Positions 1-3,111 of a stretch of 64,000 nucleotides of DNA are shown one piece after another. Source of the stretch: Shigella phage ESh32; the sequence record ON528742; one strand, given 5' to 3'. Both the position numbers and the translations under genes were made by a program. The notes beneath the pieces are model-generated. The model saw only the letters and a list, made by a program, of their open reading frames with translations, was not told the origin of the DNA and did no database searches. How positions within the stretch are numbered: position 1 is the first letter of the stretch; every line of letters begins with the position of its first letter.

Positions 1-456
1 TTTATCACTGAAGCAGCTATTAATTCTCAAATTATTGCTGAATCTTTTACTGATCTTTTGAAATTTAAAAAAGGTCAAAAAATTACTGCTGTATTGGATG
101 ATGGTACAGAAGTTGAGATGGATGTACAGGGATATAATTATGCAGTAGATGGAAAATTGTATAATAAATCTCATGCTAAATTTGATTCATTTGACGACTT
201 TGTTAATGCAGTTGAAGATGAAAAAACTCGTCGATCCATTGCAACTGGTGATGCTAAGGTTCTTATGGCACATGGTCATGAACGCATTCGCGCTAAACAG
301 AATAAAATGGGTGAAGATAATTTTGCATTAGTTGGTTATCAATCTGGTAAACAAACCTATGGTTATCAGCGTACTGCTACCATGTATAATAAAAATGGTA
401 AAATTGCCTTTGTGAATAGTAAGGGTTCTATTCAGTACGTTAAATCGTTCAAATAA
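1..456 (+). CDS. hypothetical protein, 5'-truncated by window edge
   Basis: frame open from position 1 to stop at 454-456; track ORF 58..456 starts at a TTG inside the same frame. Confidence 0.45.
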   Translation, partial: FITEAAINSQIIAESFTDLLKFKKGQKITAVLDDGTEVEMDVQGYNYAVDGKLYNKSHAKFDSFDDFVNAVEDEKTRRSIATGDAKVLMAHGHERIRAKQNKMGEDNFALVGYQSGKQTYGYQRTATMYNKNGKIAFVNSKGSIQYVKSFK

Positions 457-597
457 TATGGGAACAACCTGGACCTCATGATTCTGTGAGGGATTCCCGC
501 CAACCTGTAATAAGGTCGAGCCCAAGTGCGGTAATGGGTAAATACAGAAATGGACAATTCATGCGCCACGGAATGGCCCAAACTTAGAGAGAATAAA

Positions 598-1137
598 ATG
601 AGAACATTTTTAACTGGTCCTTATCTATCCCTGATGAATGCTTTTACACACCATTCTGATGCTAGAGTAGAAGAAATTTGTAAAAACGAATATATCCCGC
701 CATTTGAAGAATTACTTAAACAGTATTGCACACTTCGACTAGATGGTGGACGTCAATCCGGTAAATCAATTGCTGTGACTAACTTTGCTGCTAATTGGTT
801 GTATGATGGCGGAACAGTTATCGTTCTTTCTAATACTTCAGCTTACGCTAAAATTTCTGCAAATAACATTAAAAAGGAATTTTCGCGTTATTCTAATGAT
901 GATATACGTTTTCGTTTATTTACTGATTCTGTGCGCAGTTTTATTGGTAATAAAGGAAGCAAGTTCAGAGGTTTATCGCTTTCGCGAATTTTGTATATAA
1001 TTGATGAGCCTGTCAAATCTCCTGATATGGATAAGATTTATAGTGTCCATATTGAGACTGTACACTACTGCTGTAATAGTAAATGTTGTATTGGTGGTAT
1101 TACTCGTCCACAGTTTTTCGTAATCGGAATGCAATGA
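598..1137 (+). CDS. small P-loop NTPase-like protein
   Basis: Walker A-like GGRQSGKS and Walker B-like ILYIIDEP in ORF 550..1137; ATG at 598 (17th codon) chosen for spacing to purine-rich stretch. Confidence 0.5.
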   Translation: MRTFLTGPYLSLMNAFTHHSDARVEEICKNEYIPPFEELLKQYCTLRLDGGRQSGKSIAVTNFAANWLYDGGTVIVLSNTSAYAKISANNIKKEFSRYSNDDIRFRLFTDSVRSFIGNKGSKFRGLSLSRILYIIDEPVKSPDMDKIYSVHIETVHYCCNSKCCIGGITRPQFFVIGMQ

Positions 1138-1463
1138 TGACAGACACTCAGCTTTTCGAATATCTTTATTTTTCGCCAAAAACTATTAAAAATAAATTGG
1201 TGAATCATTTTGAAATTTTGGCAAATAACAACGTCTTGAGCGAATTTTATCCTAAGAAATACAAATTACAAAAAGGCGTATTCAAAGGATGCAGAGTTTT
1301 ATGTACTGCTCCTAATGCAAGATTAATGAATAAAATTCCATATTTTACCATGGAATTTATTGATGGACCTTTTAAAGGACTAATCACCCAAAGTTTAATG
1401 GCATATGATTCTGAGCCATTTTTAATTAAAGAACAATCTTGGATAAATTTATTTTCTAATTGA
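1134..1463 (+). CDS. hypothetical protein
   Basis: ORF 1083..1463; internal ATG at 1134 overlaps upstream stop (ATGATGA junction). Confidence 0.5.
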   Translation: MMTDTQLFEYLYFSPKTIKNKLVNHFEILANNNVLSEFYPKKYKLQKGVFKGCRVLCTAPNARLMNKIPYFTMEFIDGPFKGLITQSLMAYDSEPFLIKEQSWINLFSN

Positions 1464-1469
1464 GGTTAT

Positions 1470-1832
1470 ATGAAAGCATATCAAATTCTTGAAGGCACAC
1501 ATAAAGGTACTATTTATTTTGAAGATGGTATTCAAGCACGAATTATTGTTTCTAAAACCTTTAAAGAGGACTCTTTTGTAGACCCAGAAATTTTCTACGG
1601 TTTGCACACCCGTGAAATTGAAATTGAATCACAGCCTACAGTTAAAATTGAAGGTGGTCAACACCTGAACGTAAACGTTCTGCGTCGTGAAACTCTGGAA
1701 GATGCAGTTAAGCATCCGGAAAAATATCCGCAGCTGACCATCCGTGTATCCGGATATGCAGTTCGCTTTAACTCTCTGACTCCGGAACAGCAGCGCGACG
1801 TTATCGCTCGTACCTTTACTGAGAGTTTGTAA
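1470..1832 (+). CDS. grcA: autonomous glycyl radical cofactor GrcA (YfiD)-like protein
   Basis: C-terminus [60 protein letters not shown] with RVSGY glycyl-radical motif; GAGG RBS upstream. Confidence 0.75.
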
Positions 1833-2053
1833 TGGCAAAGATAATTATTGAAGGTTCTAAAGATGTGCTAAATGCTTTCGCCGAGTGGTTTAGTAATTCA
1901 GGCGAACAGCAATTTAACGAAGCCTGGAATATGGGTGATATTGATGGAATTTATCCTACGACAGAAATTTCTGTTCAAGGATATGGCATTCATGAACCTA
2001 TTCGTTTAGTTGAATATGATTTATGTACTGGTGAGGAAGTCAAATATGATTGA
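1832..2053 (+). CDS. hypothetical protein
   Basis: 73-codon ORF; ATG overlaps upstream stop (TAATG). Confidence 0.5.
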   Translation: MAKIIIEGSKDVLNAFAEWFSNSGEQQFNEAWNMGDIDGIYPTTEISVQGYGIHEPIRLVEYDLCTGEEVKYD

Positions 2054-2312
2054 AGACATTAAAGGTTATAAGCCGCATACTGAAGAGAAAATCGGTAAAG
2101 TGAATGCTATCAAAGACGCTGAAGTTCGTTTAGGACTTATCTTTGATGCTTTATACGATGAATTTTGGGAAGCATTTGATAGCTGTGAAGACTATGAACT
2201 CGCGAAGAATTATGCTGAAAGCCTCGATCAGTTAACTATTGCTAAAACGAAACTCAAAGAAGCCAGTATGTGGGCTTGTCGTGCAGTGTTCCAACCAGAG
2301 GAAAAATACTAA
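2046..2312 (+). CDS. hypothetical protein
   Basis: ORF 2010..2312; ATG at 2046 preceded by GAGG. Confidence 0.5.
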
Positions 2313-2590
2313 TGGCTCAATTAAGTGCAGGGTTTGGTTATGAGTATTATACTGCACCTCGTCGTGTATCTGCCGCTCCTAAGAAAATTCAAAGTCTTGA
2401 TGACTTCCAGGAAGTAGTCCGTAAAGCTTTTCAGGACTATGCACGTTATCTTAAAGAAGATTCACAGGACTGTCTCGAAGAAGATGAAATTGCTTACTAT
2501 GAGCAGCGTCTTGAACAGCTTAAAAACTTACATGAGGTTCGTGCAGAAGTTTCAAAGTCTATGAATAAATTGATTAGATTTAAAGAATAA
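2312..2590 (+). CDS. hypothetical protein
   Basis: ORF 2270..2590; ATG at 2312 overlaps upstream stop. Confidence 0.5.
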
Positions 2591-2592
2591 CT

Positions 2593-2622
2593 GTTTACTT
2601 TTCCTCTTGACTGTGGTATAAT
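2593..2622 (+). promoter_or_regulatory. T4-type early promoter (GTTTAC -35, TATAAT -10, 18-nt spacer)
   Basis: ctgtttac...ctgtggtataat immediately upstream of regB. Confidence 0.6.
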
Positions 2623-2649: not shown

Positions 2650-3111
2650 ATGACTATCAATACAGAAGTTTTTATCCGTCGAAATAAGCTTCGTCGTCAC
2701 TTTGAGTCGGAGTTTCGTCAAATTAACAATGAGATTCGTGAAGCATCAAAAGCAGCAGGAGTCTCATCGTTTCATCTAAAATATTCTCAACATCTTCTTG
2801 ATCGTGCAATTCAACGGGAGATTGATGAGACATATGTTTTTGAATTATTCCATAAAATAAAAGACCATGTTTTAGAAGTTAATGAATTCCTGAGTATGCC
2901 TCCGCGTCCTGACATTGACGAGGATTTTATTGATGGGGTTGAATATCGTCCTGGACGTTTAGAAATCACAGATGGAAATCTTTGGCTTGGATTTACGGTT
3001 TGTAAACCTAATGAGAAGTTCAAAGACCCGTCACTTCAATGTAGGATGGCAATTATCAACAGTCGTCGTTTACCAGGAAAGGCTTCTAAAGCAGTAATTA
3101 AAACTCAATGA
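2650..3111 (+). CDS. regB: RegB site-specific endoribonuclease
   Basis: 153-aa ORF matches remembered T4 RegB (MTINTEVFIRRNKLRRHFESEFRQ...); AAGAGGAG RBS. Confidence 0.8.
   Translation: MTINTEVFIRRNKLRRHFESEFRQINNEIREASKAAGVSSFHLKYSQHLLDRAIQREIDETYVFELFHKIKDHVLEVNEFLSMPPRPDIDEDFIDGVEYRPGRLEITDGNLWLGFTVCKPNEKFKDPSLQCRMAIINSRRLPGKASKAVIKTQ

Follow-up and report, generated by a model that had tools for sequence, protein, structure and literature searches.

Gene vs.8 of T4-like phages encodes a single-domain P-loop protein derived from the large terminase and follows a conserved structured RNA

The large terminase gp17 of phage T4 (610 aa) and the vs.8 protein (179 aa) share the ASCE fold, the Arg-Gln pair in Walker A (SRQLGKT in gp17, GGRQSGKS in vs.8), a Walker B motif of the type hhhhDE and an R-G dipeptide about 11-13 residues ahead of the catalytic Glu. 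The P-loop Arg signature R-Q-x-G-K-[ST] is common to both, R52-Q53 of vs.8 corresponding to R162 of gp17. However, vs.8 has no counterparts of gp17 residues 1-141 and 276 onwards. The adenine-binding Q motif of gp17 (Y142-Q143) corresponds to the variable Y32-I33 in vs.8, and the C-motif TTT is replaced by G177-M-Q179 at the vs.8 C-terminus, after strand 172-176. Both the lid subdomain (N-subdomain II) and the RNase-H-like nuclease are absent from vs.8, which ends at residue 179, right behind the core sheet.

Stand-alone ATPase domains of similar size have been crystallised from phi29 (gp16 ATPase, 5hd9) and P74-26 (TerL; 4znk, 4zni, 7ks4). Their arginine-finger logic is common to vs.8, but they are packaging motors or pieces of motors that dock on portals, whereas vs.8 is not known to have a portal, DNA or small-terminase partner. 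In P74-26 TerL the confirmed finger, R139, lies between alpha2 and beta3, and T4 also has an Arg there (PMC5727402). Domain 1 of the SF1/SF2 helicases (RecD, RadD, DEAD-box proteins, SLFN11) shows a comparable order of motifs along the chain. However, in helicases a second RecA-like domain provides the arginine finger and the nucleic-acid cleft, whereas vs.8 has one domain.

An activation of the terminase sensor EcAvs2 by vs.8 has already been described by Evans et al. 2026 (PMC13601566). There vs.8 is described as a terminase-like ATPase, toxic on co-expression with EcAvs2; T4-like terminases were recovered from it by PSI-BLAST, structural similarity was reported, and an AF3 model places vs.8 in the terminase pocket with a bridging ATP. 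Ksap1 and Ksap2, the non-terminase Avs2 activators of the same study, resemble vs.8 in being small, lineage-restricted, terminase-ATPase-like and able to activate Avs2 on co-expression. According to the description in PMC13601566, they differ in that detectable terminase homology and intact Walker A and B motifs are found in vs.8 only. Two genes near vs.8 have assigned functions: vs.4 is acb2, encoding the anti-CBASS sponge Acb2 (PMC12657218), and vs.3 encodes TadIV-1, a sponge acting against type IV Thoeris (PMC13243611). In the latter study a vs.8-vs.3 fragment was expressed in E. coli, driven by "the promoter of vs.8", and among individually cloned genes, including vs.8, impairment of type IV Thoeris was reported for vs.3 only (PMC13243611).

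The window considered here is a 64,000-nucleotide stretch of Shigella phage ESh32 DNA, 99.9% identical to phage NBEco003. By sequence similarity its ORF at 598-1137 is identifiable as T4 gene vs.8, the name given to it in RB14, and the window as that of a T4-like phage. The coding sequence lies on the plus strand, from ATG 598 to TGA 1135-1137, and encodes 179 aa; the ORF of about 180 aa reported in the first-pass annotation is real. It is an independent gene and not an extension of a neighbour: Ip4 stops at 456, and the start of vs.7 is at 1134/1137. The PHROG 1488 profile matches over its full length (E 4.1e-79), residues 3-179 aligning with positions 2-177 of the 177 in the profile.

The program-made ORF list has an upstream start, ATG 550, yielding 195 aa. 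This ATG sits within the AUGGAC of a conserved non-coding RNA motif. The ATG annotated as start in RB14 is ACG in the window. The extension of the 219-aa form annotated in T4 is in a different frame (8-nt indel). The conserved vs.8 N-terminus, M[RK]TFLT, starts at 598, and the relatives have purine-rich boxes at the same site as the GAGAG of the window. Translation is predicted to start from ATG 598, 3' of a conserved structured leader.

Table 1. Features of the vs.8 locus (window coordinates)
Feature	Position	Strand	Comment
Conserved pseudoknotted RNA element, 5' leader of vs.8	460..579	+	covariance model R1, 80 bits, E 3e-21
Helix P1	460-464/494-498	+	RNA element 460-579
Helix P2	474-478/487-491	+	RNA element 460-579
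Hairpin d	503-506/513-516	+	RNA element 460-579
Junction helix J	about 500-501/536-537	+	RNA element 460-579
Long-range PK	469-471/545-547	+	RNA element 460-579
Hairpin f	565-568/574-577	+	RNA element 460-579
Shine-Dalgarno-like GAGAG	587..591	+	6 nt 5' of the start codon; read from sequence
vs.8 coding sequence	598..1137	+	98.3% identity with T4 vs.8; PHROG 1488 E 4e-79
Walker A/P-loop GGRQSGKS, aa 50-57	745..768	+	invariant in A1; aligned with gp17 161-SRQLGKT-167
Terminase-type P-loop Arg R52	751-753	+	kept in 34/35 A2 members
Walker A Lys K56	763-765	+	kept in 28/35 A2 members
R124-G125, candidate trans-acting arginine finger	967..972	+	invariant in A1; aligned with gp17 R245-G246
Walker B ILYIIDEP, aa 131-138, with D136 and catalytic E137	988..1011	+	aligned with gp17 251-MIYIDE-256
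Cys-rich variable loop, aa 157-168, HYCCNSKCCIGG	1066..1101	+	no conservation beyond close relatives
Last beta-strand and C-terminus FFVIGMQ	1114..1134	+	occupies the place of the gp17 C-motif strand (IIITTT)
vs.7	1134..1463	+	start overlaps the vs.8 stop (ATGATGA)

Conservation was assessed in two alignments, A1 (vs.8 proteins 41-88% identical to the window protein, 36 invariant columns) and A2 (the 35-member vs.8 family). [quoted passage not shown] Both motifs are present, and G50-GRQSGK-S57 satisfies GxxxxGK[ST] with S57 as the Walker A Ser; the spacing given was slightly off, being 81 residues from start to start and 80 from K56 to D136. The catalytic residues are conserved across family members that share only 17-66% identity with the window protein. 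E137, invariant in A1, is kept in 25 of the 35 A2 members, D136-E137 in most, and the position of R124 is occupied by R or K in 32. In a subfamily of seven A2 members the Walker A Lys is replaced by His and the catalytic Glu is lost, which suggests that ATP hydrolysis is not universal in the vs.8 family.

Residues 160-168 of the Cys-rich loop are modelled at pLDDT <50 and correspond to variable alignment columns; a Pfam conotoxin match on this loop (E 0.003, below the cut-off) is spurious. Further downstream, F173, G177 and Q179 are invariant in A1, and the strand at 172-176 is present in the AF2 model. The correspondence of FFVIGMQ to gp17 280-287 was read off the sequence, the HMM alignment stopping at gp17 275.

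The AF2 model of vs.8 (pLDDT 80, pTM 0.82) has five strands (45-48, 73-78, 107-111, 131-136, 172-176) alternating with helices, helix 54-69 following strand 45-48. This is a three-layer alpha/beta ASCE fold with the P-loop between strand 1 and helix 1. Thus the P-loop fold assumed in the first-pass annotation is borne out by the model, with which the Foldseek matches agree, and so is the absence of a fused domain, the model being a single five-stranded P-loop domain. All strong Foldseek matches are ASCE ATPases, at modest TM-scores (0.36-0.50) and with helicases scoring equal to terminases. The top PDB matches are domain 1 of SF1/SF2 helicases (SLFN11, RecD, RadD, DEAD-box proteins); the phi29 packaging ATPase 5hd9 and the P74-26 TerL ATPase structures 4znk, 7ks4 and 4zni are also found (E 4e-3 to 1.5e-2, TM 0.45-0.48, probability 0.99-1.0).

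The convincing link to gp17 is provided by one comparison, that of the 35-member family profile with the gp17 N-terminal alignment (hhalign, probability 96.6%, E 4.8e-10). It places vs.8 aa 32-156 on gp17 142-275 in such a way that both Walker motifs and the R-G dipeptide coincide, at an identity of only about 15-20%. BLASTP of vs.8 against gp17 was uninformative, and hhalign with a single sequence was weak (probability 12%). PHROG 2 (terminase large subunit) is matched by 19 of the 35 family members, with the best E-value 2e-7. For the Pfam family Terminase_6N, whose gathering score is 22, vs.8 reached 12.7 bits; 13 of 35 members match it, all below threshold, and AAA_14 is matched about as often. 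No family in Pfam, NCBIfam or PADLOC matched vs.8 above threshold, and sequence and profile searches of PDB produced generic P-loop matches only (E about 0.07). Terminase_6C/PF17289, present in gp17 homologues, has no match in vs.8. On these profile scores vs.8 is placed as a homologue of gp17, yet beyond the curated boundary of the Terminase_6N family. Its one domain, an ASCE P-loop domain, descends from N-subdomain I, the ATPase core, of a large terminase of the T4 type.

The gene was found by tblastn in 1009 phage records, in 1007 of them near full length, and in T4-like phages only. A deep HMM search of 1.84 billion representatives returned 50 small proteins only and no terminase at E <= 1e-3. 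Two distant family members, P0051 and P0056, matched T4-like vs.8 genes only (~26-32% identity) in a collection of cultured phages; they appear to come from uncultured phages, because the cultured collection gave nothing beyond T4-like vs.8. Fragments or short versions are represented by P0013, P0018, P0019, P0021 and P0023 and by the T2 and Lutter entries.

The T-even location upstream of regB, suggested initially for comparison, is indeed that of this gene: T4-like vs.8 heads the vs block, being the first gene of the tight vs.8-vs.3 group. Synteny at this position holds for at least six genera. The vs.8-vs.7 pair is kept in all five other genera examined, and the order vs.8-vs.7-vs.5-vs.4-regB-vs.1 in Jiaodavirus, Gaprivervirus, Winklervirus and Marfavirus. 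For vs.7, nine homologues were found, and its AF2 model has pLDDT 50. Three points lay beyond the view of the first-pass annotation: the P-loop of the large-terminase type, the identity of the gene as vs.8, and the two anti-defence genes in the block.

The explanation that we favour, and to which as a whole we give slightly less than an even chance, is that vs.8 is a terminase-derived ATPase, preceded by a leader and coupled to vs.7, that acts as a look-alike in phage-host conflict. The protein retains the nucleotide site (K56, S57, R52, D136, E137, and R124 at the P74-26 finger position). The parts with which a terminase packages DNA are gone, namely the N-terminal ~140 residues of gp17, the lid, the C-motif and the nuclease. 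Its translation is probably coupled to that of vs.7. It is predicted to bind Mg-ATP, and the main subfamily would hydrolyse it, probably only once assembled into an oligomer or complex, with R124 completing the active site of a neighbour. In the least certain part of this explanation, vs.8 may serve as an ATP-loaded look-alike of the terminase ATPase, engaging host factors that bind the terminase fold, either in counter-defence or as a decoy. Recognition by Avs2 would then be a by-product of the resemblance to terminase.

A counter-defence or immune-mimicry role is our best guess, because vs.8 heads a block with the sponge genes vs.4 (Acb2) and vs.3 (TadIV-1). The idea of a host-takeover or anti-defence factor, put forward in the first-pass annotation, seems more plausible given this gene context and the discussion in Evans et al. 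2026. However, co-expressed vs.8 activates EcAvs2 and does not block it (PMC13601566), the opposite of what a working decoy would do. The effect on type IV Thoeris reported for vs.3 only also speaks against such a role, and association within an early region of T4 is weak evidence; the block also contains GrcA (vs.6), which is not a defence gene.

The helicase matches suggest another explanation, which we consider unlikely: vs.8 might be an independent nucleic-acid-dependent ATPase, a minimal helicase- or translocase-like motor or loader working early in infection as a homo-oligomer, perhaps with vs.7, with host or phage DNA or RNA as its substrate. Besides the fold matches and the conserved coupling to vs.7, motifs can be made out along vs.8 in the order I / Ia-like / Ib-like / II / III-like. 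However, no helicase family is significant by sequence, and vs.8, very small for a motor, consists of a single RecA-like domain that lacks both a second such domain with motifs IV-VI and a recognisable nucleic-acid-binding element.

The part of gp17 to which vs.8 is homologous is exactly that forming the inter-subunit ATPase interface, and the Arg at the finger position and the P-loop Arg are retained. This would fit a modulator of the phage's own terminase, a possibility we hold to be more doubtful still: vs.8 could cap gp17 assemblies or insert into them, giving or withholding the R124 finger, or could bind gp16, so that ATPase or nuclease activity would be held back until proheads are ready. 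As vs.8 is confined to T4-like phages, a T4-type TerL is present in every genome with vs.8. However, an identity of about 15-20% makes conservation of the interface questionable, and the truncated or split vs.8 products on record in T2, Lutter and SV76 imply that vs.8 is dispensable. The expected timing is also unfavourable: gp17 is a late gene of T4, whereas vs.8 lies in the pre-replicative vs block with early-type neighbours.

The adjoining sponges of nucleotide signals bring in a further explanation, a poor candidate in our view, in which vs.8 binds nucleotides as a scaffold without catalysis, or else is a kinase or sponge for small molecules (nucleotides), resembling Acb2 and TadIV-1. The His-type subfamily has lost both catalytic residues, Lys and Glu, but retains the fold with its P-loop Arg, which suggests that binding matters more than hydrolysis. 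However, within the vs.8 clade proper (A1) the catalytic Glu never varies. The Walker B Asp-Glu and the strand order are ASCE features, unlike those of P-loop kinases, and there is no similarity to kinase or sponge families in Pfam, NCBIfam or PADLOC. Finally, the idea that vs.8 has no function and is decaying after a duplication of the terminase gene, as the fragments and truncations in some phages might suggest, is effectively refuted by conservation, given the 1007 full-length records, the invariant A1 columns, the synteny and a protein able to trigger EcAvs2.

The leader of vs.8 folds into a conserved pseudoknotted RNA element (Table 1). Strongly covarying pseudoknotted motifs with invariant loops are often riboswitches, ribozymes or protein-binding regulators. 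Covariance model R1 finds one copy of the element in the whole window and a copy in 41 of the 42 sources searched (the window and vs.8-carrying loci); in nearly all relatives it precedes vs.8. JD18-like phages have an inserted ip-like gene beside the element. The fold is backed by strong covariation in aligned columns. It is these columns that support the pseudoknot, the per-sequence shuffle test alone being not significant; the single-sequence MFE z-score of the leader, 0.38, is not significant either. The RNAalifold MFE consensus, which has a different long-range fold, was set aside, as it rests mostly on invariant columns. Helix m (CCC/GCG) is poorly supported, with its middle pair in five sequences only. 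A coding reading of the leader was rejected: T4 and the window do not share a reading frame there, and the substitutions are non-synonymous.

The core of the element, 40 invariant nucleotides, also occurs in rV5-like, Phapecoctavirus (inside the tRNA gene cluster) and siphovirus genomes, and blastn with this core in addition matches Campylobacter phage records. The core pattern is absent from bacterial genome contigs. Rfam 15 gave no match at E <= 1 on window positions 300-1300 and, in five further loci, none at E <= 10 that overlaps the element; ARAGORN predicted no tRNA or tmRNA at the element, and a literature search found no paper with the core sequence or a description of it. A scan for promoters and terminators produced 12 sites, with 11.9 expected from shuffles.

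The element shares several features with PeSL cassettes (PMC2839356, PMC4122927): both are conserved, intergenic, located in hyperplastic regions of T4-like genomes at module boundaries, and associated with gene shuffling. However, a PeSL consists of a sigma-70-type promoter and one simple stem-loop, and the leader was not accepted as one. The element is 120-250 nt long and combines a pseudoknot with at least six helices and with long single-stranded blocks that are invariant. Convincing promoter hexamers are missing, and unrelated phage families carry the core. There is some small chance that the RNA at 460-579 represents a class of phage regulatory RNA so far undescribed, either a leader that senses a ligand or protein or an element that processes itself, and that it gates an anti-defence operon of vs.8, vs.7, acb2 and tadIV-1, in which vs.8 would be an ATP-loaded terminase mimic directed against terminase-sensing immunity.

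The present analysis adds to the description of vs.8 its true start codon, the candidate finger R124, the Lys-to-His, Glu-less subfamily and the position of lead gene in a block with two validated sponge genes. A bacterial pattern-recognition receptor mistakes vs.8, in which the terminase ATPase core occurs naturally on its own, for terminase. The retention of this gene by over a thousand T4-like phages bears on how such phages cope with terminase-sensing immunity (Avs1-3, Upx), and also on the minimum size of a packaging-type ATPase. The RNA element, a side finding, is the most novel result and may matter more than the vs.8 protein. Its core is common to unrelated virulent phages, and if it is indeed a regulatory RNA of an undescribed class, the recurrence of the core across phage families would point to a widespread mobile RNA module.

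Over its first 3.2 kb the window is 99.9% identical to phage NBEco003, and it matches RB14, AR1 and further Tequatrovirus genomes at ~98% identity; the gene order in RB14 is e, Ip4, vs.8, vs.7, vs.6, vs.5, vs.4, vs.3, regB, vs.1, vs, tk.4. The ORF described in the first-pass annotation as a small stand-alone P-loop NTPase is the known T4 gene vs.8 (the T4 protein is 98.3% identical to that of the window). That description is right in its core. The ORF, estimated at ~180 aa, runs from ATG 598 to TGA 1137 (179 aa) and encodes both Walker motifs, GGRQSGKS at residues 50-57 and ILYIIDEP at 131-138; however, the motif starts are 81 residues apart, not ~95 as had been thought. By tblastn, vs.8 occurs in 1009 phage records, in 1007 of them near full length, and all are T4-like phages of enterobacteria. 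Truncated or split products (P0013, P0018, P0019, P0021, P0023) occur in phages including T2 and Lutter (BFVD entries of 57 and 110 aa, and of 133 aa, respectively) and SV76, and thus the gene is dispensable in at least some lineages. Its GenBank labels are inconsistent (matching records H40, H67, H73, H76, H82, H93): 'hypothetical protein', 'endoribonuclease', 'terminase large subunit', 'terminase-6 domain-containing protein', 'internal head protein'. The label 'endoribonuclease' was apparently carried over from regB.

The annotated starts of vs.8 also differ. A mechanical ORF list begins the gene at ATG 550 (195 aa), the start ATG annotated in RB14 (189 aa) is ACG in the window, and the T4 product is annotated with 219 aa, an 8-nt indel placing its N-terminal extension in another frame than that of the window. 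The conserved protein N-terminus begins at 598, with GAGAG six bases upstream, and this corrected start codon is new here. The stretch covered by the extensions is a conserved RNA, and it is the presence of this RNA that leads ORF callers to extend the gene.

This pseudoknotted RNA, directly 5' of vs.8 (GC 52%), is apparently undescribed and is the chief new result here. It is more conserved than the vs.8 protein. The copies of T4 and RB14 are nearly identical despite different upstream genes (denV in T4; Ip4 in RB14 and the window), and long blocks are kept in genera whose vs.8 is at ~40% identity. A covariance model built on 16 sequences detects a single copy in the window (80 bits, E 3e-21) and a copy in 41 of 42 sources, these being the window and vs.8-carrying loci. 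The structure was tested on 42 distinct sequences, with 500 shuffles and partners slid by 1-3 columns as controls. Standard pairs fill 86.3% of cells, compared to 24-46% with slid partners. Two-sided changes affect 17 pairs, against 11.3 +/- 1.3 in shuffles, none of the 500 reaching 17; the covariation score is 0.250, against 0.087 in shuffles and at most 0.074 with slid partners. Covariation is strong in helices P1 (five of five pairs), J, d and f and in the long-range helix PK. Since PK is not part of the covariance model, it is an independent test of the fold. Its core pairs are of several types: one is CG in 18 sequences, UA in 15, AU in 3 and GC in 1, and another is GC in 29, CG in 4 and AU in 3. 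By crossing P1, PK makes the fold a pseudoknot; the RNA is assigned to the vs.8 strand by its G-U pairs. Most versions retain invariant unpaired blocks (among them CCUCUCC, GUGAUGG, a GUAAUA loop, CGAG, GGUAA and AUGGAC) and, 20-30 nt ahead of the start codon, a hairpin with the loop xGGAx. Rfam 15 has no match to the element, ARAGORN finds no tRNA or tmRNA in it, a literature search on the core sequence found no paper carrying it, and the core pattern is absent from the bacterial genomes searched.

Occurrence of the element does not depend on vs.8: by blastn it is found in 1111 phage records, compared to 1009 with the gene. In JD18-like phages a full copy precedes an ip-like gene, whereas vs.8 is preceded by the 3' module only. 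Two copies each are found in four loci from other phages (L053, L042 and the two listed in the table), and the 5' modules are doubled in tandem in L042, L053 and L064. The 40-nt invariant core ACCUGUAAUAAGGUCGAGCCnAAGnGCGGUAA is shared by Vequintavirinae (V18, V5, rV5), the 45-kb siphovirus Ivi and Phapecoctavirus (phiWec188/190), in the last of which it lies in a tRNA gene cluster between tRNA-Thr and tRNA-Gly. Further blastn hits fall in phage BEU50 and 18 Campylobacter phage records. The versions in Vequintavirinae, Phapecoctavirus and Ivi are modules of 70-85 nt with the same architecture, in which the P1 loop is complementary to the 3' tail, but helix sequences differ. P1 and J covary between phage families (P1: GAAUG/CAUUC, GAGGG/CCCUC, GGGG/CCCC; J: ACU/AGU, GCG/CGC, AGC/GCU). 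Such modular behaviour suggests an element marking the boundaries of recombination or gene insertion. The RNA could be a riboswitch-like leader, a ribozyme or processing element, an independent sRNA, or a protein-binding site.

Features of the window and copies of the RNA element in loci from other phages (L)
Feature	Location	Strand	Remarks
RNA element	window 460-579	+	
vs.8	window 598-1137	+	
vs.7	window 1134-1463	+	start overlaps vs.8 stop
vs.6	window 1470-1832	+	
vs.4 = acb2	window 2046-2312		anti-CBASS sponge (PMC12657218)
vs.3 = TadIV-1	window 2312-2590		sponge for type IV Thoeris signal (PMC13243611)
sigma-70-like site	window 2594-2622	+	TTTACT, 17 nt, TATAAT, TG before; just upstream of regB
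RNA copies	L004:2430-2571 and 2846-2973		
RNA copies	L061:930-1071 and 1387-1473		
RNA core module	L068:1473-1541		phiWec190
RNA core module	L069:1470-1540		Ivi
RNA core module	L070:1472-1554		V18
RNA core module	L072, L073		further loci

The vs.8 protein matches PHROG 1488 (function unknown; E 4e-79) and, weakly, PHROG 2, terminase large subunit; apart from PHROG 1488, the curated libraries gave nothing above threshold. Searches of 5.8 billion and 1.84 billion sequences yielded 27 homologues and 50 representatives at E <= 1e-3, respectively. Nearly all are small stand-alone proteins, 140-185 aa in length; four exceed this, the longest having 259 aa. Invariant in an alignment of 19 sequences are T45, D49-G-G-R-Q-S-G-K56, R113, R124-G125, L132, I134-I135, E137-P138 and the C-terminal F173...G177...Q179, with D136 nearly so. 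The AlphaFold2 model from this alignment (pLDDT 80, pTM 0.82) shows an alpha/beta domain of five strands, in which a single Cys-rich, non-conserved loop is disordered. Foldseek bears out the P-loop fold, as its PDB matches are all ASCE ATPases (TM 0.36-0.50): domain 1 of SF1/SF2 helicases, the packaging ATPase of phi29 and, from P74-26, the ATPase domain of TerL. Viral models bring up numerous uncharacterised proteins, 150-175 aa long, of T4-like, Vi1-like and jumbo phages. A rival reading of vs.8 is an independent nucleic-acid ATPase.

The Walker A motif has the form R-Q-x-G-K-[ST], as in SRQLGKT of gp17, the T4-type large terminase (RB14 sequence). Comparison of profiles of 35 family members and 13 gp17 N-terminal domains (probability 96.6%, E 4.8e-10, 125 columns) aligns vs.8 residues 32-156 to gp17 142-275, with GGRQSGKS and SRQLGKT, R124-G125 and R245-G246, and ILYIIDE and MIYIDE (D255/E256) in register. 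PHROG 2 is matched by 19 of the 35 members and Pfam Terminase_6N, below its threshold, by 13. Unlike gp17, vs.8 has no adenine-binding Gln, C-motif, lid subdomain or nuclease, and its chain ends with G-M-Q where the C-motif is expected. Thus it is a homologue of the terminase ATPase core, not a terminase. R124 occupies the position, between alpha2 and beta3, of the confirmed trans-arginine finger R139 of P74-26 TerL, where T4 terminase also has Arg (PMC5727402); judged from this alignment, it is a candidate arginine finger, new here. K56, S57 and D136 would bind Mg-ATP and E137 would perform hydrolysis; R52 would act in cis, and R124 in trans as part of an oligomer or complex. Another rival explanation is that vs.8 controls the phage's own terminase.

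GK[ST] is kept in 28 of the 35 family members, most of them also having [DE]E and the C-terminal G-x-Q. In the seven others, all metagenomic (P0056, P0058, P0060, P0064, P0065, P0067, P0068), the Walker A Lys is replaced by His, the catalytic Glu is absent and the C-terminus is [FML]E. The P-loop Arg, present in 34 of 35, is retained in this new subfamily, which by its motifs is probably a non-hydrolysing branch. The split suggests that hydrolysis is required in the vs.8 clade proper, not family-wide. A further rival explanation makes vs.8 a binding-only protein.

The gene is always the first after an intergenic gap. Its pairing with vs.7, whose homologues carry Pfam PF26834 and whose AlphaFold model (pLDDT 50) is too poor to interpret, is kept across genera, and the order vs.8-vs.7-vs.5-vs.4-regB-vs.1 is kept in Jiaodavirus, Gaprivervirus, Winklervirus and Marfavirus with vs.8 identity of only 37-43%. 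In the window, gaps from vs.8 to vs.3 do not exceed 7 nt; the sigma-70-like site, the best in the first 3.2 kb, would separate regB from this block. The gene vs.6 encodes a homologue of GrcA, the autonomous glycyl-radical cofactor (Pfam Gly_radical, E 2.3e-18); it is present in the window and JD18 and absent from the VR26, X20 and PhiKpNIH-6 loci. In E. coli, 'the promoter of vs.8' was used to express a T4 fragment spanning vs.8 to vs.3; among the genes that were cloned one by one, vs.3 was the only one reported to impair type IV Thoeris (PMC13243611). The region headed by vs.8 includes acb2 and TadIV-1, both described in papers from 2025-2026, and is in effect an anti-defence island, a context new here.

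The terminase-like ATPase nature of vs.8 and its interaction with EcAvs2, a bacterial immune sensor recognising terminase, have been reported before (Evans et al., Nat Commun 2026, PMC13601566). In that study vs.8 came up when T4 proteins were screened against EcAvs2 with AlphaFold 3; its Walker A and B motifs and its homology to the ATPase of T4 terminase were noted, it was placed in the terminase pocket of EcAvs2, and co-expression of the two was toxic. Its role was left open, the authors suggesting that activators of this kind may serve in anti-defence. Recognition by EcAvs2 was shown by others; fold, motifs, homology and synteny are shown here. The least certain step is the role of vs.8. 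EcAvs2 is activated by vs.8, not blocked, and the evidence from association in T4 early regions is weak, both of which argue against a part in phage-host conflict. Nevertheless, such a part, as a look-alike of the terminase ATPase, is favoured, because vs.8 has two sponge genes as neighbours, is restricted to one lineage, is dispensable and is engaged by a terminase sensor.
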